Assembly (NCBI GenBank): GCA_963718615.1
Contig: OY970368.1
Location: 2,944,001 to 3,008,000, forward strand
DNA length: 64,000 bases
DNA from: an uncultured cyanobacterium
GTDB lineage: Bacteria > Cyanobacteriota > Cyanobacteriia > PCC-9006 > JAAUQQ01
Reading direction: 5' to 3'
Under the pieces are notes generated by a model that saw only the letters and a list, made by a program, of their open reading frames with translations, was not told the DNA's origin and did no database searches. The translations under genes and the position numbers were made by a program. This document shows positions 46,722 through 62,791 of this stretch, piece by piece (the stretch's first letter is position 1; every line of letters starts with the position of its first letter).

Positions 46722-47609
46722 ATGATGAATAGGAATACGGCTCAAGCTATGTTCGGTAAAGGCTTGCCTCTCGTCGTTATGACGGCAATAGTGTCGCTAC
46801 CCGCCCAGGCGGCTACCCTGGCCGGTGCCAGTAGTCAGTCCGAATTATTTAACTTTATGCTCAATGGGGTGACCACGTTGCCCCTTTCAACGGATACCGC
46901 AACAGATACCCATACGCTGGTCATTGGTGGAGAATCGTCCGTTGTTAGCGTGAGCGATGCAACTGCAACCTTTCAAGTCGATCCTCCTGTCGCTCAGGCT
47001 CAGTCAATCGGAATTTCCCAAGGCGATGGACCAACCTCGTATTTCGGTTCCGCTGATGGCACAGCAGAAGCCTTGGGGCTCTTTTGGGTGGAGGGTCTGT
47101 TTTCCTTCGATTTCACGTCGGATCTGGAACTGTTGACGAGCCTTGACGATCCGCATTATGAATCCATCTGGGCTACGGGCAGCACGCTGTTTTCACTCTA
47201 TGGATCCGAAAGTCCCGATAGCCAACCTGTCTTGATTGATTTCTTTTCCCTCGATGGTGAGATTTCCTCGACCAGTTTCGGCGATGCCTTAGCAGTAGGC
47301 TATAGCTCTCATATTTCTCTAGCACCAGAGGATTGTAATGCCATCGAGCCCCTGGCTTGCCTGCAGCAAAACGATGGTGGCAATACAGAATCGGCCTTAG
47401 CCCATCTTACAGGCTCCTACGAACGCAATTTTGATACGCCCCTTTGGATTACCCTGGTCAAATCCCAGTTTGTTGCAGCCCAGGTTCAGAAGACGCCAGA
47501 AAGTACCAGCTCTCTTAGCTTTCTGCTACTGCTCGCCTTCGGTGGGTTTCGCTTCGGACACAAATCATCGGCTCGTCCTGCGGATCCTGACATTAGCGTT
47601 GATGAGTAA
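46722..47609 (+). CDS. Exported Ser/Thr/Asp-rich protein with a PEP-CTERM-like sorting signal
   Basis: Signal PAQA|A and C-terminal 'KTPESTSSLSFLLLLAFGGFRFGHK'. AGGAG RBS. Confidence 0.75.
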   Translation: MMNRNTAQAMFGKGLPLVVMTAIVSLPAQAATLAGASSQSELFNFMLNGVTTLPLSTDTATDTHTLVIGGESSVVSVSDATATFQVDPPVAQAQSIGISQGDGPTSYFGSADGTAEALGLFWVEGLFSFDFTSDLELLTSLDDPHYESIWATGSTLFSLYGSESPDSQPVLIDFFSLDGEISSTSFGDALAVGYSSHISLAPEDCNAIEPLACLQQNDGGNTESALAHLTGSYERNFDTPLWITLVKSQFVAAQVQKTPESTSSLSFLLLLAFGGFRFGHKSSARPADPDISVDE

Positions 47610-47728
47610 TTTGATGAGTAAAAGGATGGCTTAATCAGCAGGTTCGTGGCCTGTGGAGGCGTTGGACAGGCAAGAGGCTAGGCCAATCGTCCCGTCCTAT
47701 GCCTCTAACTACGCCTCTACAGTAGCGC

Positions 47729-48076
47729 CTATCTACCGGTCCATAGCTCAACGGTTAACGTTGTGGCACTACCCACTAATCCGGTAAAGTTGCCAGCCCC
47801 GTAATAGCCCGCAGAAACGGTTATTCCCTGGGATTGGGCAAAGGCATCGCCTCGGGCTCGGGCGCTGCTCGTGGCATATTGCGCGCCTAGGACTGCTCTA
47901 GTACGAGTATCCGCCCCCGCAAAGCTCACCGTTCCTAGGGCCAAGGAGGATGCATCGGCAAGACCATAACCATAACCCACTGCCACATTGCCATCGGCGG
48001 TTGCTTGAGGTCCAGCTGCACCCTGAAGTTTGGCCGACGCCGCTGGATTGCAGAACTTCAAATCTTGAATCTTCAT
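47729..48076 (-). CDS. Small Ala/Gly/Ser/Thr-rich protein with a double-Gly-type (GA) leader, EbfG-like
   Basis: MKIQDLKFC...KLQGA|AG. GGAG RBS. Confidence 0.75.
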   Translation of the reverse strand: MKIQDLKFCNPAASAKLQGAAGPQATADGNVAVGYGYGLADASSLALGTVSFAGADTRTRAVLGAQYATSSARARGDAFAQSQGITVSAGYYGAGNFTGLVGSATTLTVELWTGR

Positions 48077-48238
48077 AGGTCTCCAGTCGCTGAAATATCT
48101 TAGCGATCGCAAGGATTATTCGACAGATTTAAGGCTGGGTTCAGCGGTGGGTGATCTCTGGGAGAACTTTTAAGGCTTGCCCCAGAGATAACATAATGAT
48201 GCGTCGAAAGACTAACCGTTGACGCCGAACCCCAAGAT

Positions 48239-48541
48239 TTATTTCGCTAAATTAATCACAGCAACAGAAGCACTGGCGGAGTAAGAACCACCAAGGAATG
48301 TAGCTAGCGCAACTGAATCACCCCGAGTAAAGGAAAAAGTAGGTAGACTGGTATTGTTAATGGCTTCCGCGCTGCCAGTCGCGGCTGCACTATTACTGCC
48401 TGCTAGTGGAGTGTTGATCAAGGTGGTAAAACTGCTGCTGCTGCCAACAGACAAAAGGCGATAGCCTGCGGCTCCCTTCATCTTGGCACCGAGATGAGTC
48501 TGAGAAAGCCTGTCGATGTAGTCTAAATCGGCAATCTTCAT
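48239..48541 (-). CDS. Small Ser/Ala/Thr-rich protein with a double-Gly-type (GA) leader, EbfG-like
   Basis: MKIADLDYI...KMKGA|AG. GGAGA RBS. Confidence 0.78.
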   Translation of the reverse strand: MKIADLDYIDRLSQTHLGAKMKGAAGYRLLSVGSSSSFTTLINTPLAGSNSAAATGSAEAINNTSLPTFSFTRGDSVALATFLGGSYSASASVAVINLAK

Positions 48542-48607
48542 AGGTATAATTCTCCAGCACTAATTTGATTTTTCTCTTTTGGCTATTAAATTAGCCATTC
48601 TCCAAAA

Positions 48608-48648
48608 ATAATACTCGCTTTAAGAGTGTAAAGACTGCCAAATTGGCA
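48608..48648 (-). promoter_or_regulatory. TGCCA-N3-TGGCA box + 22 nt + TATTAT (-10) promoter
   Basis: Minus strand reads TGCCAATTTGGCA-gtctttacactcttaaagcgag-TATTAT. Confidence 0.65.
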
Positions 48649-48699
48649 ATTTAAAATATTATCTTATCAAGATAGAGCGATCGACAAAAAAATCAGATT

Positions 48700-49530
48700 T
48701 TAACGATGGGCGATGCGGTGATTTTCATTTTTTGCTGCGCCCATAGATCGACTAGAAGATTGGCGGACTAGATTCGGATCTGCAATAATTTCATCTTTTT
48801 CATAATGGACATAGTGACTCAGTTCTCGTTGTAGCCACTCTTGGAAGAGCTGCTCTAGGATACCCTGGCGAACGTCATCTGTTAGTTCCGCCAGTAGAAA
48901 AGATTCTGGTAAAAGCAAATGATAGCCATGTTCCGTTTGAATCGGATAGATTAGTTCGTTAGGATTTGCGCCAAAAACGGCAGCGGCTAGGGCTGCCGGT
49001 AAGGCATTGCGCTGGACTAAACCTTCATAGCCGCAGCGAGACCGCCGTTCTTCATTGACATCATAAATATGAGCTGCCTCATAGAAGCTAATCTCTTCTT
49101 CTTCGACTTGATAAAATAGCTCCTGGGCGAGTTGCTCATAGGGGACGATAATTTGATAGAGCAGCACTTTATCAAAGGTAATTCGATTTTCATAAAAGAA
49201 TTTTTCGACATCTTTTTCAAACAGCGTTTCCTTGAGCTTTTGGATAAGAAGGCGATCGCGAATTCCCTCTTCCCAGTCATTAGGACTAATTCCTTCGCTC
49301 TCCAGCCAGTCAAACGTGTCCGATGCTTTTTCTAGCTTCATTTGACGACGAAGCTGGTCGACTTCGGCCTGAATCTCCTTCTCATCAATGGCCAATTCAT
49401 GACTAGAGGCTTTCTCTTCCACAATCCGTTTTGACAAAATGTGATGGCAAACGGATTTAAATTGGATATTTCGCTTTAGGAAACTCACAATTTGGTCTTG
49501 GCTCACCAACTTTTCTAACGGATTTGTCAT
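48700..49530 (-). CDS. Parvulin/PpiC-type peptidyl-prolyl isomerase of the kind found in cyanobacterial T1SS/bacteriocin clusters
   Basis: 'LYQIIV..EQLAQELFYQVEEEEISFYEAAHIY', 'GYEG' and 'PIQTEHGYHL'. Confidence 0.85.
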   Translation of the reverse strand: MTNPLEKLVSQDQIVSFLKRNIQFKSVCHHILSKRIVEEKASSHELAIDEKEIQAEVDQLRRQMKLEKASDTFDWLESEGISPNDWEEGIRDRLLIQKLKETLFEKDVEKFFYENRITFDKVLLYQIIVPYEQLAQELFYQVEEEEISFYEAAHIYDVNEERRSRCGYEGLVQRNALPAALAAAVFGANPNELIYPIQTEHGYHLLLPESFLLAELTDDVRQGILEQLFQEWLQRELSHYVHYEKDEIIADPNLVRQSSSRSMGAAKNENHRIAHR

Positions 49531-49686: not shown

Positions 49687-52014
49687 ATGGAGCCGATGAT
49701 TCTTGCTAAAGCAGGATTACCCTCAATATCTCGGGGTTTGGTCATGACTGCAGGACAGCATTCTGAGACGCGTTCTGAGCCAGAGGTGAAGACTTGCTTG
49801 AAAGCGGCGATCGAGCAGCATCGCGCAGGACAGCTTATTCAGGCGGAGAAGCTCTATCAAAGGGTTCTCCAACATCCGTCCTGCGATCGCCAACAGCGGG
49901 CAGAAGCTTATAATAATCTGGGAATTACCCTCCAGCAGCAAAACAAATGGCAAGAGGCTGCCGGGGCTTATCGCAGGGCGATGGAGGAAATGCCCACCTT
50001 GGTTGAGGCTTACTTCAATTTAGGGACTGTGCTGCAGGCGCAGGAGCGATCTTCAGCAGCTATCCTGGCCTATCAGGAGGCGGTGCAGCTTCAGCCAGAT
50101 TATATTGAAGTGTATTACAACTTAGGTCGGCTTTATCATCAACAGGGATTGCTGTTAGAGGCTGAGCAGACCTATCGACAGGGACTAAACTATCGTCCTG
50201 ATGACGTCGAAGTTCAGAAGGCATTGGGTCATCTTTGTTATGAACAGCATCGCTTGGAAGAGGCACAAAATGCCTATGAGAAAGTGATTCAGATTGATCC
50301 TCAAGATGCTAAGGCTCACTATAGTCTAGGGGTTACTTTAAAAGCTCTGGGAAATTCATCAGCCGCAATTCAAGCCTATGTACAAGCCTTGCGCTGCAAT
50401 CCAGATTATTTTGAAGCCCATAATAATCTAGGGACGCTTCTCCAGGAAGCGGGGCGGTTTGATCTCGCAATTCAGGCCTTTCAGCAGGCGCTTAAGTGTC
50501 AGCCCAACTACGCCAGAGGTTATGCTAATTTGGGGGCTATCCTCAAAAGCCAAAATCGCCTAACGGAAGCGATGAAAGCCTATGGCCAAGCGCTTGTGCT
50601 ACAGCCGAGTTTGTTCCAGGCTCGATTGGGCTTGTGCATCAGTCAACTGCCAATTATCTATGAAAGTGCAGCAGAGGTTGAAGAGCGGCGTGGACAATAT
50701 CATCAACAGTTACAGGCGCTTTTTGACTATTACCAAAAAGCGCTACCTCAGGAACGGGCTGAGGCGGCGCGCGATATTGGCCTAGTCCAGCCCTTTTATC
50801 TCACTTATCAAGGACAAAATGATCGAGAACTCCAGGCTCTATACGGTCAGCTCATGACTCAGCTAATGGCCTGCCGTTTTCCTCAATGGAGTCAACCGTT
50901 GGCAAAACGTAAGGTTCAATCCCATGAGAAGATTCGGGTTGGCATCGTTTCTGGTTTCTTTCATAATCATTCCAATTGGAAAATTCCGATTAAGGGGTGG
51001 GTACAACAGCTAGATCGCGATCGCTTTGAGCTGTGGGGATACTATACCCGTGCAAGACAAGATGAAGAGACAGCGATCGCAGCCCAGTCCTTTGATTCCT
51101 TTATTCAGGGGCCTTTGGCACTAGAAGAATGGGCGAAGTTAATTCAGGCAGATCAGCTTGATGTCTTAATTTTTCCTGAATTTGGCATGGATATGACAAC
51201 CTTGCAGTTGGGATGTTTACGACTTTCTCCCACGCAAGTGACGTCCTGGGGACATCCAGAAACGAGTGGTTTGCCGACGATTGACTATTGCCTCAGTAGT
51301 GACTTGATGGAACCACCCCAGGGGCAAGAATATTACACAGAAAATCTTGTCCGGCTGCCAAATCTGTCCATTTATTATGAACCTTTAGCGCTTTCCATAG
51401 ACAGGATTTCTAAAGCAGATATTGGTCTTGAAGAACAACAGACTCTCTATTGGTGTTGTCAATCACTTTACAAATATCTACCCCAGCATGATGATATATT
51501 TCCACGTATTGCAAAGCAAGTCGATCATGCTCGCTTTGTGTTTATCGCTCATCATAGCGATCCGGTAAATGAAGTTTTTCGAAAGCGATTACATCTTGCT
51601 TTTCAAGCGGAAGGTCTTGATCATGAAACCTATTGCATATTTTTACCTGAGATGAAGGTTAATCGCTTTGCGGGCGTTGCTGCGATCGCTGATGTTTTTT
51701 TGGATAGCTTAGGCTGGTCAGGGTGCAATTCAAGTTTTGAGTCTTTGGCCCACCAGACGCCAATTGTGACTTGTCCTGGAGAACTGATGCGTAGTCGTCA
51801 TACCTTGGCAATATTGAAAATGATGGAGCTTGAGGAGGCGATCGCCTATGACAAGTCAGAATATATCAGGATCGCGATCAGACTTGGGCTAGATCCGGTG
51901 TATCGGATGTCCATCGCCCAAAAAATTGCTATGAATAGGCATCGACTTTATTGGGATCTTGAAGCGATTCAGGCTCTAGAAGCCTTTTTGTTAGAATCAG
52001 TCGAACAAGTATAG
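49687..52014 (+). CDS. TPR + GT41 (O-GlcNAc transferase/SPINDLY/HMW1C-like) glycosyltransferase
   Basis: About 8 TPRs, 'KIRVGIVS..F.NHS', 'SWGHPETSG' and 'DVFLDS..WSGCNS'. Start uncertain (49687-49744). Confidence 0.9.
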   Translation: MEPMILAKAGLPSISRGLVMTAGQHSETRSEPEVKTCLKAAIEQHRAGQLIQAEKLYQRVLQHPSCDRQQRAEAYNNLGITLQQQNKWQEAAGAYRRAMEEMPTLVEAYFNLGTVLQAQERSSAAILAYQEAVQLQPDYIEVYYNLGRLYHQQGLLLEAEQTYRQGLNYRPDDVEVQKALGHLCYEQHRLEEAQNAYEKVIQIDPQDAKAHYSLGVTLKALGNSSAAIQAYVQALRCNPDYFEAHNNLGTLLQEAGRFDLAIQAFQQALKCQPNYARGYANLGAILKSQNRLTEAMKAYGQALVLQPSLFQARLGLCISQLPIIYESAAEVEERRGQYHQQLQALFDYYQKALPQERAEAARDIGLVQPFYLTYQGQNDRELQALYGQLMTQLMACRFPQWSQPLAKRKVQSHEKIRVGIVSGFFHNHSNWKIPIKGWVQQLDRDRFELWGYYTRARQDEETAIAAQSFDSFIQGPLALEEWAKLIQADQLDVLIFPEFGMDMTTLQLGCLRLSPTQVTSWGHPETSGLPTIDYCLSSDLMEPPQGQEYYTENLVRLPNLSIYYEPLALSIDRISKADIGLEEQQTLYWCCQSLYKYLPQHDDIFPRIAKQVDHARFVFIAHHSDPVNEVFRKRLHLAFQAEGLDHETYCIFLPEMKVNRFAGVAAIADVFLDSLGWSGCNSSFESLAHQTPIVTCPGELMRSRHTLAILKMMELEEAIAYDKSEYIRIAIRLGLDPVYRMSIAQKIAMNRHRLYWDLEAIQALEAFLLESVEQV

Positions 52015-52258: not shown

Positions 52259-52549
52259 ATGATTATTTCTGATCTTTCCTACCTGGATAACGTTGCTGAA
52301 GAGCAAGTTGTGGGTGGTTTTTCGTTTAGTGCTAACAAGAATGTCGACATCAGCATCGGTGTTAACGAAACCATCAACATCAACAAGAATGTCAACTCTG
52401 CTGTGAACATCAGCGGCAACCTCGCAACGGCTGAGTCTGGCGCAACTGCTTTCGGCAACAACACCATTGCTGAAGCCTTTGGTTTCACCTACACGGATGC
52501 TGGTAGCTCTGCTGCTAACGCCTTCTCCGTTTCCGCTACCAACGACTAA
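52259..52549 (+). CDS. Small double-glycine-leader secreted protein, copy 1 (EbfG-like)
   Basis: MIISDLSYLDNVAEEQVVGG| followed by an N/S/A/T-rich alternating core. GGGAG RBS. Confidence 0.88.
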   Translation: MIISDLSYLDNVAEEQVVGGFSFSANKNVDISIGVNETININKNVNSAVNISGNLATAESGATAFGNNTIAEAFGFTYTDAGSSAANAFSVSATND

Positions 52550-52560
52550 TTAATTAGTCA

Positions 52561-52584
52561 TTCCGAGGTCTTCGGTCCTCGGAA
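52561..52584 (+). terminator. C(UUCG)G stem-loop after copy 1 (stabiliser or weak terminator)
   Basis: TTCCGAGGTC-TTCG-GTCCTCGGAA, with no clean poly-U tail. Confidence 0.6.
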
Positions 52585-52664
52585 TTGTTTGGTCATTATG
52601 GCAGGTTTGAAAAACAGATTGCCATTCTTTTATTCCCTTAATTTCCACTTGAAGGAGAACTCCA

Positions 52665-52955
52665 ATGATTATTTCTGATCTTTCCTACCTGGATAACGTT
52701 GCTGAAGAGCAAGTTGTGGGTGGTTTTTCGTTTAGTGCTAACAAGAATGTCGACATCAGCATCGGCGTCAACGAAACCATCAACATCGACAAAAATGTTA
52801 CCTCCGTTGTAAGCATCAGCGGCAATCTCGCAACAGCTGAGTCTGGCGCAACTGCTTTCGGCAACAACACTATTGCTGAAGCCTTTGGCTTCACCTACAC
52901 GGATGCTGGTAGCTCTGCTGCTAACGCCTTCTCCGTTTCCGCTACCAACGACTAA
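52665..52955 (+). CDS. Small double-glycine-leader secreted protein, copy 2
   Basis: 92 of 96 residues identical to copy 1. AAGGAG RBS. Confidence 0.88.
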   Translation: MIISDLSYLDNVAEEQVVGGFSFSANKNVDISIGVNETINIDKNVTSVVSISGNLATAESGATAFGNNTIAEAFGFTYTDAGSSAANAFSVSATND

Positions 52956-52966
52956 TTAATTAGTCA

Positions 52967-52990
52967 ATCCGAGGCCTTCGGGCCTCGGAT
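52967..52990 (+). terminator. C(UUCG)G stem-loop after copy 2
   Basis: ATCCGAGGCC-TTCG-GGCCTCGGAT, a perfect 10-bp stem. Confidence 0.65.
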
Positions 52991-53141: not shown

Positions 53142-53438
53142 ATGATTATTGCTGATCTAAACTATTTTGAAAATGCTGATGACCGACCGACCTATGGTGG
53201 GTTTTATGTTGGGGAATCTAAAAAAATTGGAATTGAAGTTAACATAGCAGAAAATGTCTTAATTGGTAAAAATCTCAAGGCTGTTCTTTTGCTCCAGGGT
53301 AATTTGTCTACGGCGGAAGCAGGCGCAACGGCTTTTGGTAAGAACACTCTGGCTGAAGCCTTTGGGTTTACCTATACCGACCATAACGGTTCTTCCTCCA
53401 ACTCCTTCTCGATTTCTGCAACCTCCTCTGGAGCTTAA
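53142..53438 (+). CDS. Small double-glycine-leader protein, divergent paralogue 3
   Basis: MIIADLNYFENADDRPTYGG|. Shares 'GNL.TAE.GATAFG.NT.AEAFGFTYTD' with copies 1 and 2. Confidence 0.85.
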   Translation: MIIADLNYFENADDRPTYGGFYVGESKKIGIEVNIAENVLIGKNLKAVLLLQGNLSTAEAGATAFGKNTLAEAFGFTYTDHNGSSSNSFSISATSSGA

Positions 53439-53443: not shown

Positions 53444-56400
53444 ATGAATCAGCTTAGGCATAATGCAGCTTTTTCCATGGATACAGTTGTGCTGAATCAT
53501 CAAGTTGCTGTAGTGACTGGAGGAGGAAGGGGTCTGGGTCAAGCCTATGCCTTAGCCTTAGCCACATCGGGTGCAAAAGTTGCGGTGATTGCTCGTTCTT
53601 TCCAACAGCTTGAAGACACTGTTAACGCTATTCAAACTTTAGGTGGGCAGGCGATCGCTATTCCTGCTGATGTCACGGAGCCGAAAACCTGCGAGCAGGC
53701 GATCGCTCAAATTCAGGATCAGCTAGGGCCGATTGACCTGCTGATTAACAATGCCGGTGTGTTTACGCCCATTGGTCCACTGTGGCAGACTTCGCCCCAG
53801 GATTGGTGGCAAACCCTTGAAGTCAATCTTAAAGGCTCCTTTCTATATAGCCATGCCATTCTATCGTCAATGGTGGCTCGTCAACAGGGTCGCATTATTA
53901 ATGTGGTGAGTGAGGCAGGTCTCTTAGGAATTCCTTACTGTTCATCCTATGGGGTTAGCAAAACGGCGCTAATTCGCTTGAGTGAAACCTTGGCTTTAGA
54001 GGCTGCGACCCACAACGTCTACATTTTTGCACTGGATCCTGGAGCCGTTCGAACGACGATGACCGATATTCGGCATTCCCCTGAAGCGCAACAGTGGATT
54101 CCCTGGTGTAATCAAGCCTTTGGGCAGAATCAAGACGTTTCCCTGCAACGGGTTGCTGATGTGATACTACGTCTAGCTTCGGGTCAGTACGACGCTTTGT
54201 CAGGGCGATATCTTCATGCAACAGATGACCTAGCGGCTTTGCTTCAGAAAAGTTCAGAAATTCAAAACCAGCAAGCCTATGTTCTTCGACTAGGTCGATT
54301 AGACCTACCTCTTGTGTCAACAACTCCTATTGATGAGCTTTTGCAACAGGCGATCGCAGTAGAGCCGCAGGATATTGACCAAGCCCAACAACTCTATCAT
54401 CGTATACTAACGGCACAGCCCCATCATCAGGATGTTCTTTATCGCCTCGGTCATTTAGCCCAGCGCCAGGGTCAGCCGAAAGAGGCTATGCAATGGTGGC
54501 AAAGGCTTTTGAATGTCAACTCCCATTCGCTTAAAGCCTGGTTTAGCTTAGGCAATCTCTATCAGGCTGAAGGAGATTTACAGGCTGCTGAAATGGCCTA
54601 CCGTCAAGCCCTTGTGCTTCAGCCACAGCAGGGAGTTCTCTACAATAATTTAGGTTATGTGCTTCATCAACAGACTCGACTTGATGAAGCTATTGTCTGT
54701 TACCAAACGGCTCTAAAACTTCAACCGACCAGTGTCGAAACCGAGGCTAATCTCGGTCACACATTACAGGCACAGGGAGAGCTCTCTTCAGAACAACAGG
54801 CCTATTATGGAGCGCTCAATTATCGGTTGGGTGTTCATCGGCATCAGAGGGGAGATAAAGCAACTGCGGAAGTTTATTATCGACGGGCGATCGCTCTAGA
54901 TCCTACCGTAATTGATTTTTATCTCTCTCTGGGTCAACTATTGCAAGAACAGTGCAAGTTGGATGAAGCGATCCTATCCTTAGAAAAGGCTCTGGTCCTG
55001 CTTGGCGCTCAGTCTCAGGCCCAAACTCAAGTCCAAGCTCCAACCCAACCTCAACCTCAGAAACCTCAGATTCAATCTGAACAACGCCAGACTCAAGAGA
55101 TTAAAACCTATTTTAAACTCGGTCAGCTCTACCAATATCAACGTCAACTGAAGAATGCCGTTGTGATGTATCGGCAGGGGCTGATTCTGGCGAATCCTCA
55201 CTATGCTCAAGCGATCGCAGCCCAGCCTGCTCATGCTAGCGAATTGGTGACCGACGTTCCCACGACACCTTCTATTTCACTCGGAGAAGTGAGGGTGGGA
55301 GACTATCTATTTCCTGCAATTCCTGCGGTTCAAGACTTGGAAACCTCTCGACCTTTTTGGTCTGTTGTAATTCCGGTTTATCGTCGTACGGATTATGTAT
55401 TGGAGGCGATCGCCAGTGTGCTCAGGCAATGGCCTGGCCCAGCAGCTATGGAAATTTTGGTAATGGATAATGCCAGCGATCCACCTCTGTTCGAATGGGT
55501 AAATCAGCTCGGTCAAGGAATTATTCGTTACTATCGTAATTCTCAAAATGTGGGTGTAGTCAACAACTCTAACCTAGGCATTGCTCTGAGTCGAGGGCAA
55601 TGGATTCACGTTCTGCATGATGATGATTGTGTTTTGCCCGGATTCTATCAGAATCTTCAAGCGAGTTTAGAGTCTTGTCCGGACTCTGTTGGAGTTGCCT
55701 GCACTGGCTTTGAATATTTTGATGAGATGGGCAATGCTTTAGAGACTGGCGAAGTCAGTTCAATCTACGGTTCCAATCGGGGGATCATGCAAGATTGGCT
55801 AGCTCGGATTGGAGTCTGTGGTTTGGTGACGATTCCTGCCATGGTGGTGCGTCGCGCAACCCATGAACATTTGGGTGGGTACTATCCGGCGTTGCCAGAA
55901 ATTGCGGACTGGGAAATCTTTAAGCGTTATGCGTCCTTTTATGATTGGTGGTACGAGCCAGGAATTTTAGCCCGTTATCGTGAACATACGCGAAAAATGA
56001 CGCCGGAGAATTGGCGCACGGGAACCATCGCAGAATCAATTCGCTTGGCGATCGAAGTGTCTGATAGCTATTTTCCAGAAGCGCAGCGTCAGGCGATTTC
56101 GCTCAGTGCACGTCGTCATAATTTTAACTATTGCCTGAGTCGGTTATCTATTCCGTTAGAAATGGGCAATCAGGCCGGTGCCCTGCGAATTTTGCGAGAG
56201 GTTCTCAAGATTGATCAGTCGACGGCAGCGATCGCCAAGCTCTTGACTTGGTTGAAGGAAAAGCAAGCAGAGCCGATACGCGAACTCATTTTCTCTCAAC
56301 TATTCTCCCTAAATAGCGAGACTGAAAAATCGAGCAGAGTAGAATTATCCCAAAATCCTTTGCTTTCCTGTGCCGCTAATCAATCAACTTTTTCATCTAG

Positions 56401-57457
56401 TTCTCAGTCCATAACGATTGGCAATACTCAGTTTCCGGCAATTCCTCCCCTACCCACCATTGCGGTTGAACGACCCTTTTGGAGCGTTATTATTCCGGTC
56501 TATAATCGGATTGATTATCTATCCGAATGTCTGAACAGTGTGCTTTCCCAGGATCCTGGAGCAGACAGAATGGAAATTCTAGTCATGGACGACGCTAGTC
56601 TGGAATTATCGGAGACAATTCATGCTCTAGTCAGCTCCTTAGGAAAAGGCCGGGTGCGTTATTTTCGCAATGCCCAGCGTCAAGGTTTACCCGGTAATTG
56701 GAATTGTGGACTTTTGCATAGTCGGGGTCAATGGATTCATGTGTTGCATGATGATGATTATGTACTTCCCGGATTCTATAACCATCTCCAGAAGAGCTTA
56801 GAAGATGCTCCAGTTTCTGTCGGTGCTGCATTTACGGGTTACGAAAATATTGATGAAGCAGGAAAGACAATCTTTACCCGTAGTTATGGGGATTCCCAGG
56901 GTATTGTGCAAAATTGGCTTCAAACCATTGGCGTTTCTAATCCTTTAAATATGCCTGCCGTTGTCATCCGTCGTTCGGTCCATGAGCAGCTTGGGGGATA
57001 TCATCCTCAACTGACCTATACCAGCGATTGGGAGCTGTACAAGCGGATCGCCTCTTTTTATGATTGGTGGCATGAGCCTGGAATTTTGGCGCGGTATCGT
57101 GAACATCGTCAAAGTAAGACTTCGGAGCTTTTTCTCAGTGGTGCTCAGGTGGATTCGATTCGACAGGCGATCGAGATATCTACGGGATATCTTCCTGCTG
57201 AGTGTAATGAATATGTAACCGAAAAGTCGCGCCAGTACTACGTTGCTTACTGTTTGAAGCTTGCATCAATTCCGCTTCAGGCCGGAATGACAGAAAATGC
57301 TTGGAGACTCGTTCAAGAAACATTCAAAATTGATCAATCTCCAACCTCAGTCTCTCGGTTCTTTGACTGGCTAACCCAGACTGATCAATCGTTAATTCAG
57401 TCAGAATTTCTGCCTAGACTTATAGATTTAGAATTGGATAAAGGTCGTCTGCAATGA
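53444..57457 (+). CDS. SDR-TPR-GT2-GT2 multidomain fusion protein
   Basis: TGGGRGLG, NNAG and YGVSK (SDR), then TPRs, then two GT2 domains starting RPFWSV at 55349 and 56471, each with LHDDD. Confidence 0.88.
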   Translation: MNQLRHNAAFSMDTVVLNHQVAVVTGGGRGLGQAYALALATSGAKVAVIARSFQQLEDTVNAIQTLGGQAIAIPADVTEPKTCEQAIAQIQDQLGPIDLLINNAGVFTPIGPLWQTSPQDWWQTLEVNLKGSFLYSHAILSSMVARQQGRIINVVSEAGLLGIPYCSSYGVSKTALIRLSETLALEAATHNVYIFALDPGAVRTTMTDIRHSPEAQQWIPWCNQAFGQNQDVSLQRVADVILRLASGQYDALSGRYLHATDDLAALLQKSSEIQNQQAYVLRLGRLDLPLVSTTPIDELLQQAIAVEPQDIDQAQQLYHRILTAQPHHQDVLYRLGHLAQRQGQPKEAMQWWQRLLNVNSHSLKAWFSLGNLYQAEGDLQAAEMAYRQALVLQPQQGVLYNNLGYVLHQQTRLDEAIVCYQTALKLQPTSVETEANLGHTLQAQGELSSEQQAYYGALNYRLGVHRHQRGDKATAEVYYRRAIALDPTVIDFYLSLGQLLQEQCKLDEAILSLEKALVLLGAQSQAQTQVQAPTQPQPQKPQIQSEQRQTQEIKTYFKLGQLYQYQRQLKNAVVMYRQGLILANPHYAQAIAAQPAHASELVTDVPTTPSISLGEVRVGDYLFPAIPAVQDLETSRPFWSVVIPVYRRTDYVLEAIASVLRQWPGPAAMEILVMDNASDPPLFEWVNQLGQGIIRYYRNSQNVGVVNNSNLGIALSRGQWIHVLHDDDCVLPGFYQNLQASLESCPDSVGVACTGFEYFDEMGNALETGEVSSIYGSNRGIMQDWLARIGVCGLVTIPAMVVRRATHEHLGGYYPALPEIADWEIFKRYASFYDWWYEPGILARYREHTRKMTPENWRTGTIAESIRLAIEVSDSYFPEAQRQAISLSARRHNFNYCLSRLSIPLEMGNQAGALRILREVLKIDQSTAAIAKLLTWLKEKQAEPIRELIFSQLFSLNSETEKSSRVELSQNPLLSCAANQSTFSSSSQSITIGNTQFPAIPPLPTIAVERPFWSVIIPVYNRIDYLSECLNSVLSQDPGADRMEILVMDDASLELSETIHALVSSLGKGRVRYFRNAQRQGLPGNWNCGLLHSRGQWIHVLHDDDYVLPGFYNHLQKSLEDAPVSVGAAFTGYENIDEAGKTIFTRSYGDSQGIVQNWLQTIGVSNPLNMPAVVIRRSVHEQLGGYHPQLTYTSDWELYKRIASFYDWWHEPGILARYREHRQSKTSELFLSGAQVDSIRQAIEISTGYLPAECNEYVTEKSRQYYVAYCLKLASIPLQAGMTENAWRLVQETFKIDQSPTSVSRFFDWLTQTDQSLIQSEFLPRLIDLELDKGRLQ

Positions 57458-58524
57458 ATATTAATTTTTGGCAAGGAAAACGGGTTTTAGTCACTGGGCA
57501 TACTGGTTTTAAGGGCAGTTGGCTGTCGCTGTGGTTACAATCCATGGGGGTCGAATTGTTAGGGTATGCTTTGCAGCCTCCGACAAATCCTAGTCTCTTT
57601 GAAGTGGCAAGCGTTGCAGAAGGGATGACCTCAATTCTTGGAGATGTCGGAGACGCTCAGCATTTGCATTCGGTATTGGCTGAGTTTCAGCCGGAAATAG
57701 TGCTACATCTTGCAGCTCAGTCCGTTGTTCACACGTCCTATTTAGATCCAGTTACTACCTATCATTCAAATGTGATGGGGACTATCTATCTGCTCGAAGC
57801 GATTCGCCAAGTTCCCAGCGTTCGCTCGGTTGTCATTGTGACTTCAGATAAATGCTATGAAAACCGAGAATGGGTTTGGGGCTATCGAGAAACAGATACG
57901 CTAGGGGGCTATGATCCTTACAGCAGCAGCAAAGCCTGTGCTGAACTCGTTACCGCTGCCTATCGCAATTCTTTTTTTAATCCCAATGACTACGCTGAAC
58001 ATGGTGTGGCGATCGCCACAGCCCGAGCTGGAAACGTCATTGCTGGCGGCGATTGGACTGCGGATGGATTAATTGCAGATATTGTCCGTGCGCTGCTACA
58101 AAACCAGATTGTTCAAATTCGCAATCCCTATTCAACCCGTCCTTGGCAGCATGTCTTGAATGCCCTAGAGGGGTATCTTACTCTTGCAGAAAGACTTTAC
58201 TGCCAAGGCATTGCTTTTACGGGGGCTTGGAACTTTGGTCCCTATGAATCTTTTGTTAAACCTGTCGGTTGGATTGTCGAACAAATGCTTACGAGTTGGG
58301 GTGAGGGTAGCAGTTGGCAAGCGAATCAAACTCAATATTTTCATGAGCAAATTGCCTTGAGCCTAGATAGTTCAAAGGCACGATTCAAGCTGAACTGGCG
58401 GCCTCAGCTTTCCTTAGAAGACTCTCTAGATCAGATCATTTCCTGGACTAAAGCATATCGAGCCCAAGAAAATATGCGGCAAGTCAGTCTGGAAACTATT
58501 GCTCAGTTTCTGCGGAAAAGTTGA
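57454..58524 (+). CDS. rfbG: CDP-glucose 4,6-dehydratase
   Basis: TGHTGFKGSW, TSDKCY, YSSSK, RAGNVI and RPWQHV. Confidence 0.95.
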   Translation: MNINFWQGKRVLVTGHTGFKGSWLSLWLQSMGVELLGYALQPPTNPSLFEVASVAEGMTSILGDVGDAQHLHSVLAEFQPEIVLHLAAQSVVHTSYLDPVTTYHSNVMGTIYLLEAIRQVPSVRSVVIVTSDKCYENREWVWGYRETDTLGGYDPYSSSKACAELVTAAYRNSFFNPNDYAEHGVAIATARAGNVIAGGDWTADGLIADIVRALLQNQIVQIRNPYSTRPWQHVLNALEGYLTLAERLYCQGIAFTGAWNFGPYESFVKPVGWIVEQMLTSWGEGSSWQANQTQYFHEQIALSLDSSKARFKLNWRPQLSLEDSLDQIISWTKAYRAQENMRQVSLETIAQFLRKS

Positions 58525-58563: not shown

Positions 58564-59850
58564 ATGACAGCTCATTCCTTAACCCCCTCCTTATCCCGAG
58601 ATACAATTGGCCTAAACAAAGTTTCTCAGTGCCAGTTTTGCCACACGCCACTGCAGCATACGTTTGTCGACTTAGGCATGTCTCCTTTGTGCGAAAGCTA
58701 CATCAGTGTTGATCAACTCAATCAAATGGAGCCTTTTTATCCGCTTCATGTCCGCGTATGTCATCATTGTTTCTTGGTTCAGCTAGAAGCTTATGTAAGC
58801 CCGGAAGAAATTTTTACGGAGTATGCTTATTTTTCATCCTATGCAGATACTTGGCTTAAGCATTGCCAAGCCTACACAGATATGATTATTGAGCGATTTC
58901 AGCTCGGTCAAAACAGTCAGGTGATTGAACTGGCGAGTAATGACGGTTATTTACTTCAGTACTTTATCGAACGTCAGATTCCGGTATTGGGCATTGAACC
59001 TGCTAGCAACATTGCGAAGGTGGCGATCGCCAAAAATATTCCTACACTCAACGCCTTTTTTGGTAAGACCTTAGCCCAAACCCTTGTACAGCAAGGACAA
59101 CAAGCAAATCTCATCGTCGCCAACAATGTCCTCGCCCATGTTCCTGATTTGAACGATTTTGTCGCAGGAATTAAGACACTGCTGAAACCTCAAGGGGTTG
59201 CGACCGGAGAGATTCAACATTTGTTGCGCTTAATGGCCTCTAATCAGTTTGATACGATTTACCATGAGCACTTTTGTTACCATACGTTGACAACGCTAGA
59301 AACTATCTTTTCAGCCCATGGCTTGACTCTATTTGATGTGGAAGAATTGCCGACCCATGGAGGCTCATTACGAATCTATGCGAGACATCTAGAAGATCAG
59401 TCTAAAGCCCTGAGCGATCGCCTAGTCCATCTCAAACAGCGAGAACAGGACGAGGGATTCACCTGCCTAGAACGTTACGTTAACTTTGATGAGCAGGTTC
59501 GAGAAACGAAACGTAAGCTCATTGAGTTTTTGATTCAGGCTAAACGAGCGGGGAAACGCATTGCAGGATATGGTGCTCCCGGCAAGGGTAACACACTATT
59601 AAATTACTGTGGTATTCGTACAGATTTTTTAGATTATACGGTCGATCGCAATCCTTATAAGCATGGTAAGTTTTTGCCGGGAACCCATATCCCTATTTAC
59701 GCACCTCACAAAATTCTAGAAACTAAGCCTGACTATGTCCTAATTTTGCCTTGGAATTTCAAAGAAGAAATCATGGAGCAAATGAGTTCGATTCGTACCT
59801 GGGGTGGTCAGTTTTTGGTGCCTATTCCAGAGCTTACTGTCTATTCTTAA
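58564..59850 (+). CDS. NDP-hexose C-methyltransferase (class I SAM, Zn-binding N-terminus)
   Basis: CQFC..CHHC, ASNDGY, FDTIYHEH, HGGSLR and YGAPGKGNTLLNY. Confidence 0.9.
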   Translation: MTAHSLTPSLSRDTIGLNKVSQCQFCHTPLQHTFVDLGMSPLCESYISVDQLNQMEPFYPLHVRVCHHCFLVQLEAYVSPEEIFTEYAYFSSYADTWLKHCQAYTDMIIERFQLGQNSQVIELASNDGYLLQYFIERQIPVLGIEPASNIAKVAIAKNIPTLNAFFGKTLAQTLVQQGQQANLIVANNVLAHVPDLNDFVAGIKTLLKPQGVATGEIQHLLRLMASNQFDTIYHEHFCYHTLTTLETIFSAHGLTLFDVEELPTHGGSLRIYARHLEDQSKALSDRLVHLKQREQDEGFTCLERYVNFDEQVRETKRKLIEFLIQAKRAGKRIAGYGAPGKGNTLLNYCGIRTDFLDYTVDRNPYKHGKFLPGTHIPIYAPHKILETKPDYVLILPWNFKEEIMEQMSSIRTWGGQFLVPIPELTVYS

Positions 59851-59895: not shown

Positions 59896-61254
59896 ATGAT
59901 AAAATCTATGCCTTTAACGATCAATACTTTACATCTCGATGACTCACCATCTATCGGCTTAGATCTGCACGAACTCATCACAGAGCTATATCCCATTTGC
60001 CGTAGTATTACGGGGAACGGCGTTCGAGAATCCCTTAAAATCCTCCAAAACCACATTCCTGTCAAGATGTTTGAAGTGCCAAGTGGTACACCGGTGTTTG
60101 ATTGGATTGTTCCTCAGGAATGGAACATTCGTGAGGCATATGTGAAAAATAGTCAGGGAGAAAAGATTATTGACTTTAGAAAATCTAATCTACATGTTCT
60201 AAACTACAGCATACCGATTCACCAAAAAGTGTCATTGCAGGAACTAAAAGAGCATCTCTTTAGTATTCCTGAACATCCAGAATGGATTCCCTATCGTACC
60301 TCCTATTATCGAGAGAACTGGGGCTTTTGCCTCAGCCATCATGAGCTTCAATCTTTAGAAGAAGATGAGTATGAAGTTTTTATTGATTCATCCTTAGAGA
60401 AGGGCTCGCTGACCTATGGAGAATATTATCTACCAGGACAACATCAAGACGAAATTATCCTATCTTGCCATCATTGCCATCCTTCGCTTTGCAATGATAA
60501 TTTGTCTGGAATGGCGGTTACAGCCTTTGTGGCTCGTTATTTGACTACGCTTACAGAACGGCAGTATTCTTATCGCTTCTTGTTTATTCCGGGAACCATC
60601 GGCTCTATCACCTGGCTGTGTCTTAATCAACAGAAAACTCAGTACATTAAACATGGCTTAGTAATTTCAGGCGTCGGTGATTCTGGAACGATCACCTATA
60701 AAAAAAGTCGTCGAGGCAATGCTGAAATCGATCGGGCTGCTATACAGATCTTGAAGGATACAGAGATGACCTATCAGATTGAGCAGTTTTCTCCCTATGG
60801 ATATGATGAACGGCAATATTGCTCACCAGGATTTAACTTACCCGTGGGTCGTTTTAGCCGAACTCCCTTTGGTCAATATCCTGAGTATCATACGTCCGCC
60901 GATAATCTTAATTTTGTAAAAGCTGAATCACTCGAAGCCTCTTATCTAAATATTGTAAATGTTCTTGATCTATTAGAAAACAATTTTATATACATTAATA
61001 CCCATCCTTATTGTGAACCTCAGCTAGGCAAACGGGGATTGTATGGTTCTGTGGGTGGAGAACAGGAAAAGAAAAGTCAAGAGATGGCGATTCTTTGGAT
61101 TTTAAACCTTTCGGATGGTAAGCATTCACTGCTCGATATTGCTGAGCGTTCTGGTCTAAAATTTGCACAACTTCAAGCGGCTGCTCAGACATTGTACCGC
61201 TCTGGGCTATTAATCTACTCAAATTCATCTGTTTTGGAGGAAAATTTAAAATGA
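59896..61254 (+). CDS. DUF4910 family polysaccharide-biosynthesis protein (aminopeptidase-like)
   Basis: 'PICRSITG', 'CHPSLCNDNLSG', 'DERQYCSPG', 'YHTSADN' and 'CEPQLGKRGLY'. Confidence 0.88.
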   Translation: MIKSMPLTINTLHLDDSPSIGLDLHELITELYPICRSITGNGVRESLKILQNHIPVKMFEVPSGTPVFDWIVPQEWNIREAYVKNSQGEKIIDFRKSNLHVLNYSIPIHQKVSLQELKEHLFSIPEHPEWIPYRTSYYRENWGFCLSHHELQSLEEDEYEVFIDSSLEKGSLTYGEYYLPGQHQDEIILSCHHCHPSLCNDNLSGMAVTAFVARYLTTLTERQYSYRFLFIPGTIGSITWLCLNQQKTQYIKHGLVISGVGDSGTITYKKSRRGNAEIDRAAIQILKDTEMTYQIEQFSPYGYDERQYCSPGFNLPVGRFSRTPFGQYPEYHTSADNLNFVKAESLEASYLNIVNVLDLLENNFIYINTHPYCEPQLGKRGLYGSVGGEQEKKSQEMAILWILNLSDGKHSLLDIAERSGLKFAQLQAAAQTLYRSGLLIYSNSSVLEENLK

Positions 61255-62096
61255 AAGTTGTTCTATTTTGTGGTGGCCTTGGAACAAGGCTGCGAGAATA
61301 TTCTGAAACGATTCCTAAGCCCATGGTAGAGATCGGCTATCGACCTATAATCTGGCATTTGATGCGATATTATGCATACTTTGGTCATAAGGACTTCATT
61401 CTGTGCTTAGGTTACAAAGGTGATTATATTAAGGAATATTTTCTCCATTACAATGAATGTCTCTCTAATAACTTTACGCTCTCCAAGGGCGGCAGAAGTA
61501 TTGAGCTACATTCCAGCGATATTGAGGATTGGACGATTTCATTCGTTGATACGGGTCTTCAATCTAATATTGGTCAGCGCTTGATGGCTGTAAAACCTTA
61601 TCTTAAAGATGAAGAAGTTTTTCTCGCTAACTATGCAGATGGTCTCAGCGATCTAGATCTGGATCTTTACCTTGATCATTTTGATGCACAAGATAGGGTT
61701 GCAAGTTTTCTGGCAGTACAGCCCTCCCAATCATTTCACGTTGTCTCCCTCAATGGTGAATCTCAGGTAGATAAGATCCAACCTGTTGGTGCTTCTGATC
61801 TGTGGATTAATGGAGGATTCTTTGCATTTAAGCAAGCGATATTTGACTATATTAAACCGGGTGAGGAGTTAGTTCTAGAACCTTTTCAACGATTGATTCA
61901 ACGAAAAGAGCTAATCGCCTATCGTAATCCTGGCTTTTGGGCCTGCATGGATACGTTTAAGGAGAAAATGATGCTTGATGAAATGTATGCATCAGGCAAG
62001 ACGCCTTGGGCGCTTTGGGAAAAGGAGCGTCAACTACATCGTTATCCTGGGGCAACGCTGGGTGAAACTCACCGCCAGCAGCATGCCAATGTATAG
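61251..62096 (+). CDS. rfbF: Glucose-1-phosphate cytidylyltransferase
   Basis: FCGGLGTRL, PKPMVEIG, INGGFF and FWACMDT. Confidence 0.92.
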   Translation: MKVVLFCGGLGTRLREYSETIPKPMVEIGYRPIIWHLMRYYAYFGHKDFILCLGYKGDYIKEYFLHYNECLSNNFTLSKGGRSIELHSSDIEDWTISFVDTGLQSNIGQRLMAVKPYLKDEEVFLANYADGLSDLDLDLYLDHFDAQDRVASFLAVQPSQSFHVVSLNGESQVDKIQPVGASDLWINGGFFAFKQAIFDYIKPGEELVLEPFQRLIQRKELIAYRNPGFWACMDTFKEKMMLDEMYASGKTPWALWEKERQLHRYPGATLGETHRQQHANV

Positions 62097-62131
62097 ATTT
62101 TCATTGATGCTTAGTTTCCAGCTTAGTTCCC

Positions 62132-62791
62132 ATGATTCAACTCTTGTCCTCTTCCCAAGCCCCCAGGTCTCTTCGCTGTGTGCTTTGCTTAGGAGCACAC
62201 AGTGACGATATTGAGATCGGCTGTGGAGGAACGATCCTAAAACTCATTGAACAGTTTCCTGATCTAAGTTTTTATTGGGTTGTTTTTGGGGCATCGGGTG
62301 CTCGCGAAGCAGAAGCGATCGCCAGTGCCCAAACCTTTTTGAAGGATGCTAAGCACAGTAAGGTCATCGTCAAGGAATTCCGAGATGGTTTTTTCCCTTA
62401 TTCTGGCATTGATATTAAAGAAACTTTCGAACAATTAAAACAAGAGATTTCTCCGGATTTGATTTTCACCCATTATCGTCATGATGCCCATCAAGACCAT
62501 CGCCTGATCGCAGAGCTGACCTGGAATACCTTTCGCGATCACTGGATCTTAGAATATGAAATCCCAAAATATGATGGTGATTTAGGTCAACCTAATACCT
62601 TTACTCATTTAAGTGCTTCCATTTGCGATCGCAAAATTTCGTATTTGATGCAATTTTTCTCGACCCAGAAAAATCGAACTTGGTTTGATGAAGATACTTT
62701 CTGTTCAATTATGCGATTGCGAGGCATTGAATCTAACTCACCGAGCAACTATGCGGAAGCTTTCCATTGTCGTAAGACAATTTTATTTTAA
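62132..62791 (+). CDS. PIG-L/LmbE family deacetylase-like protein
   Basis: GAHSDDIEIGCGG, HQDH and YEIPKYDGD. Confidence 0.9.
   Translation: MIQLLSSSQAPRSLRCVLCLGAHSDDIEIGCGGTILKLIEQFPDLSFYWVVFGASGAREAEAIASAQTFLKDAKHSKVIVKEFRDGFFPYSGIDIKETFEQLKQEISPDLIFTHYRHDAHQDHRLIAELTWNTFRDHWILEYEIPKYDGDLGQPNTFTHLSASICDRKISYLMQFFSTQKNRTWFDEDTFCSIMRLRGIESNSPSNYAEAFHCRKTILF

Follow-up and report, generated by a model that had tools for sequence, protein, structure and literature searches.

Small double-glycine leader proteins beside tetratricopeptide-repeat glycosyltransferases in cyanobacteria: a recurrent gene neighbourhood and its possible role in protein glycosylation

The gene cluster described here occupies 46.7-62.8 kb of a 64-kb stretch of DNA from an uncultured cyanobacterium (contig OY970368.1, positions 2,944,001 to 3,008,000), which as a whole is called the window. 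The cluster encodes five small proteins with double-glycine-type leaders (sp1 to sp5), a parvulin-like rotamase, a glycosyltransferase of family GT41 with tetratricopeptide repeats (TPRs), a fusion of a short-chain dehydrogenase/reductase (SDR), a TPR segment and two GT2 glycosyltransferase modules, a set of genes for a sugar activated with cytidine diphosphate (CDP), and a secreted protein with a PEP-CTERM-like tail. All window proteins were scanned with Pfam and NCBIfam models. The remainder of the window carries ordinary cyanobacterial housekeeping genes, and an Rfam scan of 44-64 kb returned no match. Between about 48000 and 62000 the G+C content drops to 0.41-0.48, as compared to 0.50-0.59 in most of the window; judged by this lower value, the cluster may have been acquired horizontally or may form a compositionally distinct island.

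Three of the small proteins are encoded on the plus strand: sp1 (52259-52549, 96 amino acids, leader MIISDLSYLDNVAEEQVVGG), sp2 (52665-52955, 96 amino acids, 96% identical to sp1) and sp3 (53142-53438, 98 amino acids, 49% identical to sp1). The genes of sp1 and sp2, with 277 of 291 nt identical, are a recent duplicate. The minus strand encodes sp4 (48239-48541, 100 amino acids, leader starting with MKIADLDY) and sp5 (47729-48076, 115 amino acids, leader starting with MKIQDLKF and ending with QGA, followed by a Cys-free core rich in Gly, Ala and Thr). All five proteins start with M-(I/K)-I-x-D-L-x-(Y/F). A six-frame translation of the whole window contains exactly five instances of the pattern M.I.DL.[YF], which coincide with the first codons of the five sp genes, whereas 200 mononucleotide shuffles of the window gave a mean of 0.015 and a maximum of 1 occurrence. 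The group of five small double-glycine-leader proteins with Cys-free cores, proposed in a first-pass annotation made from the DNA sequence, is thus real. The leaders end with GG in sp1, sp2 and sp3 and with GA in sp4 and sp5, the exact position of the cleavage site in sp4 being ambiguous. Substrates of peptidase-containing ATP-binding cassette (ABC) transporters have leaders of about 15-30 residues that end in GG, GA or GS, and the leaders of sp1-sp5, with 19-20 residues, agree with this. The cores of 76-95 residues contain no Cys and almost no Pro, consist for 54-64% of Ala, Ser, Thr, Asn and Gly, and are not amphipathic.

None of the Pfam and NCBIfam models matched any of the five proteins. 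A search of the Atlas gave cyanobacterial hypothetical clusters only, with a sub-threshold lead to the 'CTB' bacteriocin family (0.85). A word-indexed search of 5.8 billion proteins found 22 homologues of sp1, of which the named ones are all cyanobacterial and all annotated as hypothetical, the rest being from unnamed metagenomes; the same search returned sp4 alone when started from sp4. The family of sp1-3 is called spA here. A profile built from 97 members and searched against 1.84 billion representatives detected 625 representative clusters at E ≤ 1e-3 and 201 at E ≤ 1e-10. The spA leader is far better conserved than the core: among the 97 members positions M1, I3, D5, L6 and G19 are invariant and I2, S4, Y8, L9, E10 and G20 are conserved for at least 90%. 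The core possesses a conserved centre (GNLATAE..A.A.G.NT..E) and a Ser/Thr-rich tail. The core of sp5 is weakly similar to another small-protein family of related loci, spB (phmmer E = 3.9e-5, 1341 proteins), and sp4 is an orphan, so the five proteins have the leader in common and not the core. Structure prediction of sp1 by AlphaFold2 on the 97-sequence alignment gave no confident fold (mean predicted local distance difference test score, pLDDT, 51.4; predicted template modelling score, pTM, 0.24), and comparison of the spA alignment profile to PDB sequences gave nothing meaningful, with one match at E = 0.18. The polymerisation into a fibre that the first-pass annotation suggested finds no support in this monomer model or in a solved relative; a monomer model of such low confidence would be silent on fibres either way.

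The genes of sp1 and sp2 are followed by GC-rich, near-identical hairpins of the form CCGAGG-N-CTTCGG-N-CCTCGG, both on the plus strand (52560-52585, -15.3 kcal/mol, z = -3.8, and 52967-52990, -22.4 kcal/mol, z = -3.6), and no such hairpin is found 3' of sp3. The hairpins are likely partial terminators or transcript stabilisers. Their presence after sp1 and sp2 but not after sp3 fits a precursor or structural gene that has to outnumber its enzymes. Across the loci, the 60 nt after spA genes fold into more stable structures than those after other genes, with medians of -11.9 and -8.2 kcal/mol (103 spA and 584 other genes, Mann-Whitney p = 5e-9 for data that are not independent).

Related loci were collected by a genome scan with the leader pattern, which gave 238 matches; 156 of these were confirmed by tblastn and the best 80, representing 78 distinct loci, were kept. 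All are cyanobacterial, and locus counts given below are not independent because many of the loci come from Nostoc and its relatives. With the window they make up 79 sources. Open reading frames (ORFs) in the related loci were called with a simple ORF caller and clustered, and the window proteins were compared to the 78 loci by tblastn. The fetched flanks of several loci are short, and in 7 loci the DNA stops at the GT2 gene. Across the 79 sources 151 leader-bearing small ORFs were found, and spA genes form arrays of up to four near-identical copies per locus.

The GT41 gene (49687-52014, plus strand; open from 49612, with the first ATG at 49687) encodes a protein glycosyltransferase of the O-GlcNAc transferase (OGT)/SPINDLY (SPY) type, which matches PF13844 with 67.3 bits (cut-off 25). 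Pfam places seven TPR_1 repeats in the N-terminal part, followed by the catalytic domain. Among solved structures, the catalytic part is closest to the OGT of T. terrenum (4e-27), XcOGT (9e-20), SPY from Arabidopsis (7e-19) and human OGT (1e-15). A lysine (in QSLYK) and a histidine (in FHNH) align with residues 388 and 218 of XcOGT, positions being counted on the alignment, and they are kept in 32/32 and 31/32 of the homologues in the related loci, respectively. We take these to be catalytic residues, the lysine binding phosphate and the histidine belonging to the active site; the K842M variant of human OGT and the K445A variant of the Synechococcus elongatus enzyme are reported to be inactive. 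OGT uses UDP-GlcNAc as donor and SPY uses GDP-fucose, and because of this difference the donor of the GT41 enzyme is not readable from its sequence. Similarity to PDB chains of HMW1C-type N-glycosyltransferases (NGTs) spans some 90 residues (111-199 of the catalytic part, E ~1e-8 to 3e-8), and with the NGT family model NF049992 the enzyme reaches 37 bits (cut-off 1000), confined to residues 508-601. The HMW1C-type identity was rejected for lack of a full-length match to the NGT family. N-glycosylation of this type at the conserved 'GNNT' was also considered, and the idea was dropped because the N-x-S/T sequon is not conserved in spA and the GT41 enzyme is OGT/SPY-like.

Recurrence of the pairing in other genomes had been named by the first-pass annotation as the decisive test of a dedicated system, and it was indeed observed. 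The GT41 catalytic part is present in 31 of the 78 loci, usually as the immediate neighbour of the small-protein genes: the gene starts at most 712 bp from the spA array in 25 of the 31 loci, and at most 3.3 kb from it in 30. The genera named among these loci include Nostoc, Anabaena, Scytonema, Mojavia, Rivularia, Calothrix, Leptothoe, Symploca and Pleurocapsa. GT2 modules were detected by tblastn in 16 loci, or in 17-18 when copies cut by the end of the locus are counted.

The gene for the SDR-TPR-GT2-GT2 fusion protein (53444-57457, plus strand, 1337 amino acids) starts 5 nt after the stop codon of sp3. A TPR module of about 160 residues from this protein (residues about 311-470) recurs with 39-57% identity and 108-177 bits in 61 proteins from 46 of the 79 sources (45 of the 78 loci, and the window), whereas it matches the TPR array of the window's own GT41 enzyme with only 84 bits. 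The module is attached to GT41 domains (at the N- or C-terminal side), to GT2, to GT4 or to GNAT (Acetyltransf_6) domains. It looks like a substrate-recruiting domain, because it is non-catalytic, is common to four kinds of tailoring enzymes and is always found beside genes that encode the invariant leader. GT41 and GT2 domains occur in one polypeptide in four loci, as TPR-GT41-TPR-GT2 proteins of 1337 and 1357 amino acids (L035 and L037; related loci are numbered with the prefix L), as GT41-TPR-GT2 (L045) and as a fusion of 2012 amino acids (L071). SDR-TPR-GT2 fusions with a single GT2 module occur in three other protein clusters, the two-module form of 1337 amino acids is found in the window only, and SDR homologues were detected in 2 of the 78 loci.

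The structural model of GT2 module B is of good quality (pLDDT 87.9, pTM 0.88). Its best listed fold matches are generic GT-A enzymes, including a Leptospira glycosyltransferase, AvpGT, chondroitin polymerase, TarP/TarS and WrtF, which act on glycans, teichoic acids or small molecules, and sequence searches gave the same picture. The earlier label 'SunS-type' for the GT2 domains had to be abandoned, as SunS is absent from the 14 sequence matches and from the listed best fold matches of module B. Since the neighbours of the GT2 module are generic GT-A enzymes and SunS is not among them, we read the GT2 modules as putative glycan-extending enzymes and the GT41 protein as the probable protein-priming enzyme. 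On balance, and with modest confidence, we favour the view that the small proteins are O-glycosylated in the cytoplasm under guidance of their leaders and are then exported, the neighbouring enzymes being most likely responsible.

In 16 loci (L031, L036, L039-L041, L046, L048, L050, L051, L054, L056-L058, L067, L068 and L073) an Acetyltransf_6 (GNAT) enzyme of 570-600 amino acids with the shared TPR module replaces GT41, with small-protein genes from three core families on either side of its gene. In these loci the cores of spA are Lys-rich (8.2% vs 3.5% in GT41-linked spA), which suggests acylation instead of glycosylation. Conversely, positions corresponding to T77, T79 and S92 of sp1 are Ser or Thr in 85-87% of 46 GT41-linked spA proteins and in 5-30% of 20 GNAT-linked ones. 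GT41-linked spA proteins are acidic, with 13.5% Asp and Glu and 4.0% Lys and Arg. The Ser/Thr and Lys contrasts would fit different chemistries acting on different residues; they are confounded by relatedness.

Downstream of the fusion gene the plus strand carries genes for a CDP-glucose 4,6-dehydratase (57454-58524; TIGR02622, 481.7 bits, cut-off 278.45), a nucleoside diphosphate (NDP)-hexose C-methyltransferase of the Methyltransf_13/14 type (58564-59850; PF08421 and PF08484), a DUF4910/DUF2172/HTH_47 protein with an aminopeptidase-like fold according to Pfam (59896-61254), a glucose-1-phosphate cytidylyltransferase-like protein (61251-62096; TIGR02623, 237.9 bits over the full length, below the cut-off of 300.25) and a PIG-L family de-N-acetylase (62132-62791; PF02585). 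The neighbours listed in the first-pass annotation could therefore be confirmed for the parvulin, the TPR-GT41 enzyme, the fusion, rfbG, the C-methyltransferase, DUF4910 and PIG-L, the assignments of rfbF (237.9 against 300 bits) and of the PEP-CTERM protein (13.9 against 16 bits) being borderline. An ORF of 84 codons between PIG-L and the next gene (62855-63109, plus strand, GTG start) has no family match and no leader and is perhaps no gene. In the related loci, tblastn detected a C-methyltransferase homologue in 5 of 78, adjoining the TPR-GT2 gene, and a cytidylyltransferase homologue in 4, and gave no match in any of the 78 for DUF4910, sp4, sp5 or the two-partner secretion (TPS) protein described below. 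NDP-sugar genes (cytidylyltransferase, SDR epimerase/dehydratase, C-methyltransferase) directly follow the TPR-GT2 gene in L003, L005, L006, L015, L035 and L037, and in L002 and L045 the glycosyltransferases are followed by TPR-GT4 and PIG-L.

Genes such as rfbF, rfbG and the C-methyltransferase are classical O-antigen genes, and they could, together with the GT2 modules, build a polysaccharide (the O-antigen of lipopolysaccharide, an exopolysaccharide or a sheath glycan), their location beside the small-protein genes being due to chance or shared regulation. This would agree with the substrates of the enzymes that resemble the GT2 module in fold, which are glycans, teichoic acid or small molecules, and with the reduced G+C content (0.41-0.48 vs 0.50-0.59) that is common in polysaccharide islands. 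We nevertheless regard a polysaccharide locus as very improbable. Within 46.7-62.8 kb there is no Wzx, no Wzy, no initiating phosphoglycosyl transferase, no chain-length regulator, no polysaccharide export gene and no membrane protein; the enzymes of the window have no signal peptide and no 19-residue stretch with a mean hydropathy above 1.6. Furthermore, the TPR module to which the GT2 modules are joined is the one that GT41 and GNAT enzymes carry at spA loci, four loci have GT2 joined to GT41 itself, and spA is linked to GT41, TPR-GT2 and NDP-sugar genes in genera that are far apart.

The spA genes of the related loci are usually part of an export cassette. ORF clustering revealed an exporter of 1020-1060 amino acids with a cyclic nucleotide-binding (cNMP) domain, a C39 peptidase and an ABC transporter in 49 of the 78 loci, with the catalytic Q..DCG motif of the C39 peptidase kept in 49/49 full-length exporters, and an HlyD adaptor in 52 loci. 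A parvulin homologue is found by tblastn in 62 loci and a HetP-family gene of 150 amino acids in 28 (NF037966, 103 bits, cut-off 45). Typically, the exporter gene is followed by HlyD, a HetP-like gene where there is one, the parvulin, one to four spA genes, the TPR enzyme, genes for RTX-type proteins and other small-protein families with the leader. The HetP-family gene lies between HlyD and the parvulin or small-protein genes, for example directly after HlyD at L049:9123-9578; it also occurs in non-heterocystous genera such as Microcoleus, and these genes lack the leader motif. The parvulin/SurA-like protein of the window (48700-49530, minus strand; PF00639 with 37.8 bits, PF13145, weak matches to SurA_N_3 and TIGR04500) is encoded by the first gene of a minus-strand operon with sp4 and sp5. 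It has no signal peptide and no hydrophobic segment and is likely a cytoplasmic chaperone.

Part of this arrangement has been described before. As far as the accessible text goes, Wang, Fewer and Sivonen (2011, PMC3140520) reported 145 cyanobacterial 'bacteriocin' clusters, among which are some with long CAP_ED-C39-ABC transporters, HlyD and a rotamase ('SurA'), as well as 'HetP-type' precursors with the motif KIxDLxYLEx10GG, which is repeated in the accessible part of a 2015 survey (PMC4558948). The leader motif, the long cNMP-C39-ABC exporter, HlyD, the rotamase and some M16 peptidases of those clusters are all seen in our related loci. The N-terminal part of the motif, M[IK]IxDLxY[LFI][DE], matches the leaders described here, whereas the spacer before GG is x10 there and about 8 residues in sp1-3. 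The label 'HetP-type' for such precursors contrasts with the true HetP-family genes (NF037966) of the related loci, which have no leader. Unlike those clusters, the window possesses precursors, a rotamase and glycosylation genes and no exporter or HlyD. In the main text of the 2011 paper the terms 'glycosyl', 'TPR' and 'transferase' never occur. The statement in the first-pass annotation that no description of the system was known thus applies to the glycosylation link, which was not found described, and not to the leader motif and the exporter/HlyD/rotamase clusters, published in 2011. Our literature search, which did not extend to the supplementary domain lists of that survey, returned no description of the pairing of leader proteins and glycosylation enzymes.

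Following that literature, the products may also be viewed as diffusible bioactive peptides, bacteriocin-like or signals of the HetC/PatS kind, with glycosylation tuning their activity as in glycocins. A GG leader with peptidase-ABC exporter, HlyD and rotamase is what was termed a 'group I/II bacteriocin cluster' in the accessible text of Wang et al. 2011, the exporters have the architecture of HetC and often adjoin a HetP-family gene, and the ATP-grasp, radical-SAM/SPASM, JmjC and M16 peptidase genes of related loci are typical of modified peptides. In these loci, MvdD-like ATP-grasp ligases and radical-SAM/SPASM genes with Nif11-type precursors adjoin the cassette, JmjC hydroxylases adjoin spA, and paired M16 peptidases recur beside the cassette (examples are L056:14616-15608, L023:18982-20247, L035:16813-18144 and L024:16363-17913). 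We consider a bioactive peptide improbable for the small proteins of the window: the cores are long (76-95 residues), acidic, Cys-free and not amphipathic, no immunity-like gene was recognised in the window with Pfam and NCBIfam, and arrays of up to four near-identical copies with their hairpins suggest abundant structural products.

The product of the gene at 46722-47609 (plus strand) is a secreted protein that starts with a signal peptide and ends in a degenerate PEP-CTERM-like sequence (TPES...LLLLAFGGFRFGHK), in which PES replaces PEP. TIGR02595 scores 13.9 bits with a cut-off of 16, Pfam gives no match, the Atlas clusters closest to it consist of cyanobacterial PEP-CTERM proteins (score 0.98), and no exosortase gene is seen within the window. 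Blastp against the called ORFs identified 34 relatives in 31 of the 78 loci, tblastn 21 loci. Short homologues combine a canonical VPEPS motif with a membrane helix and a basic tail, and fourteen of them carry canonical PEPS or PEAS tails. A relationship to a 373-aa RTX representative, suggested by ORF cluster 2, was rejected; the two proteins are not similar and the cluster is a chained mixture, which is why the true relatives were recounted separately. The domain of about 230 residues that defines the family (relatives for example L031:16153-16986 and L012:17523-18749) occurs in proteins of 270-310 amino acids with a signal peptide and PEP-CTERM, and in proteins of 408-452 amino acids without signal peptide that have RTX repeats and a type-I-secretion-like C-terminus. 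Since both forms of delivery lead outside the cell, the domain is extracellular either way. Another exoprotein gene, of the TPS class, starts at 63165, 370 bp after PIG-L, and runs off the end of the window (63165-63998, plus strand; PF05860 with 140.8 bits, and TIGR01901, filamentous-haemagglutinin N-terminal domain); its product is a conceivable extra glycosylation target. The only RTX gene of the window encodes a 432-aa calcium-binding repeat protein (14594-15892, minus strand), 30 kb upstream of the cluster. Elsewhere in the window, an AcrB/RND-type transporter ORF of 951 codons (32837-35692, minus strand) also matches LysM at residues 520-566, an unusual pairing.

Such exoproteins could be the acceptors of the glycosyltransferases, in which case the small proteins would be exported unmodified. 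The candidates are the RTX-repeat exoproteins, as counterparts of oscillin, which is a glycosylated RTX-like protein; the domain family of 46722-47609; and the TPS exoprotein at 63165, by analogy to HMW1/HMW1C, in which the GT41 enzyme HMW1C acts on a TPS adhesin. In most Nostocales loci RTX-repeat proteins (~370 or 1020-1080 amino acids) directly follow GT41, the 46722-47609 family is present in 31 of 78 loci, and in the window the TPS gene lies downstream of PIG-L at the distance given. The window cluster itself contains no RTX gene, the nearest being that at 14594-15892, the TPS query matched 0 of the 78 loci, and the GT41 enzyme resembles HMW1C-type enzymes weakly and over part of its length. 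Loci of the Microcoleus type place the TPR enzyme among small-protein genes (spA, spB, GNAT-TPR, spC), and the fusion gene of the window follows sp3 by 5 nt. Taken together, we find it unlikely that the enzymes act on other exported proteins rather than on the small proteins.

If the small proteins are indeed O-glycosylated, the following sequence of events can be proposed. The parvulin/SurA-like protein would hold the proline-poor, aggregation-prone precursors in the cytoplasm, where the OGT/SPY-like GT41 enzyme would put the first sugar on Ser or Thr, with FTYT and SVSAT as candidate sites. An acetyl group may be removed from a GlcNAc by PIG-L. Extension of the glycan would then fall to the two GT2 modules of the fusion protein, which would use a CDP-activated 6-deoxy, C-methyl hexose; this sugar would come from the cytidylyltransferase, the 4,6-dehydratase and the C-methyltransferase, perhaps with the fused SDR as ketoreductase. 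A peptidase-containing ABC exporter encoded elsewhere would cut after GG or GA and export a glycoprotein of roughly 76 residues. Outside the cell, the acidic, Cys-free products might serve as surface or matrix components, possibly with the PEP-CTERM protein.

Several steps of this scheme resemble established systems. In glycocins (sublancin with SunA/SunS/SunT, and glycocin F) a double-glycine precursor receives its sugar in the cytoplasm before a C39 ABC transporter cleaves and exports it. These peptides have 35-45 residues, are stapled by disulfides and are modified on Cys, Ser or Thr by SunS-type GT2 enzymes, whereas the cores of sp1-sp5 have 76-95 residues and are Cys-free, the proposed priming enzyme is a GT41 protein and no match to SunS was found. 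Closer to the cyanobacteria, the consulted parts of the EbfG/PteB papers (PMC4997328, PMC9981879), which agree with the facts given on this system in the first-pass annotation, describe small GG-motif proteins that are biofilm matrix components, of which EbfG1-3 form amyloid. EbfG1-4 share with the proteins described here a precursor size of ~9-10 kDa, the GG secretion motif and tandem genes, as well as C39-peptidase ABC export and a place in the extracellular matrix or at the surface, both of which are predicted for sp1-sp5. Those parts describe no glycosylation of EbfG, and amyloid was shown for EbfG1-3, whereas the small proteins studied here are known from sequence. The mature EbfG1-4 are stated there to have no homologues in other cyanobacteria, and among the matches listed for sp1 and spA (22 and 150) none is named S. 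elongatus.

Similar to the arrangement proposed here, the Ogt protein of S. elongatus, a TPR-GT41 enzyme, glycosylates pilin, and ogt adjoins pilin genes in 77 of 201 genomes according to the available text of PMC9306852. In that system, described there for S. elongatus and Nostoc punctiforme, the TPR-GT41 enzyme is cytoplasmic, lacks a secretion signal and has its gene beside that of its small secreted substrate. Here the neighbour is a GG-leader protein with predicted ABC export and not a type IV pilin, and GT2 modules, the CDP-sugar pathway and PIG-L are added. EbfG/PteB and Ogt beside its pilin substrate may by analogy serve as precedents for a glycosylate-and-export route. The exporters in 49 of 78 related loci have the same architecture as HetC, the cNMP-C39-ABC exporter of heterocyst differentiation, and like HetC they are found, in many cases, next to a HetP-family gene. 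For HetC the substrate is unknown, and no GG-leader or membrane-fusion gene occurs near hetC, as far as the consulted part of PMC10986499 states; the related loci differ from it in having both, and the window in having no exporter.

A number of observations weigh against O-glycosylation and export of the small proteins. Comparison of sequences and loci shows a leader family with its cassette, the families of the enzymes, the TPR module that is shared, the fusions and a lack of membrane and polysaccharide machinery; the modification itself is deduced from these. Neither a C39 ABC transporter nor HlyD was found in the 64-kb window, so export here would depend on genes elsewhere in the genome; of the exporter/HlyD/rotamase set the window has the rotamase only, whereas most related loci have the full set. 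In 33 of the 78 loci the fetched flank, which is short for several of them, contains no TPR enzyme. The sugar genes accompany the system in 6 loci only and DUF4910 in none, and the prevalence of Nostoc and its relatives means that the counts do not represent independent events. Among the small proteins, sp4 is an orphan, sp5 is only weakly related to a different core family (spB), and the predicted model of sp1, with a pLDDT of 51, has no confident fold. The Ser/Thr contrast between GT41- and GNAT-linked spA is confounded by phylogeny. Finally, GT41 has RTX-type and PEP-CTERM exoproteins beside it just as regularly, and these could be the true acceptors.

Small GG-leader proteins and ABC exporters are common in cyanobacteria, with a known role for the EbfG proteins only and with the substrate of HetC being unknown. 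Against this background spA is one large GG-leader family that is systematically linked to tailoring enzymes sharing a single TPR module, and the window adds the genes of an apparently complete route to an unusual CDP-sugar. The leader class and the exporter/parvulin cassette were known since 2011; what appears to be new is their tie to dedicated, putatively TPR-recruited glycosylation enzymes. More tentatively, and with considerable doubt, one may think of widespread, undescribed cyanobacterial 'mini-glycoproteins' with Cys-free, acidic cores of ~75 residues. Recruitment of their precursors would fall to a single dedicated TPR module, equivalent in function to the recognition element of ribosomally synthesised and post-translationally modified peptides and fused interchangeably to GT41, GT2, GT4 or GNAT domains, and after HetC-type export the tailored products would form an extracellular glycoprotein matrix or fibre. 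If this is true, the mini-glycoproteins would supply the missing substrate class for HetC-like exporters and would reveal a new route of protein glycosylation with a CDP-derived branched deoxy-sugar. The cluster provides a testable model of how proteins exported by ABC transporters may be O-glycosylated in the cytoplasm of a Gram-negative phototroph, with a candidate substrate-recognition domain, and a gene set that is relevant to the sheath, biofilm or surface biology of filamentous cyanobacteria.

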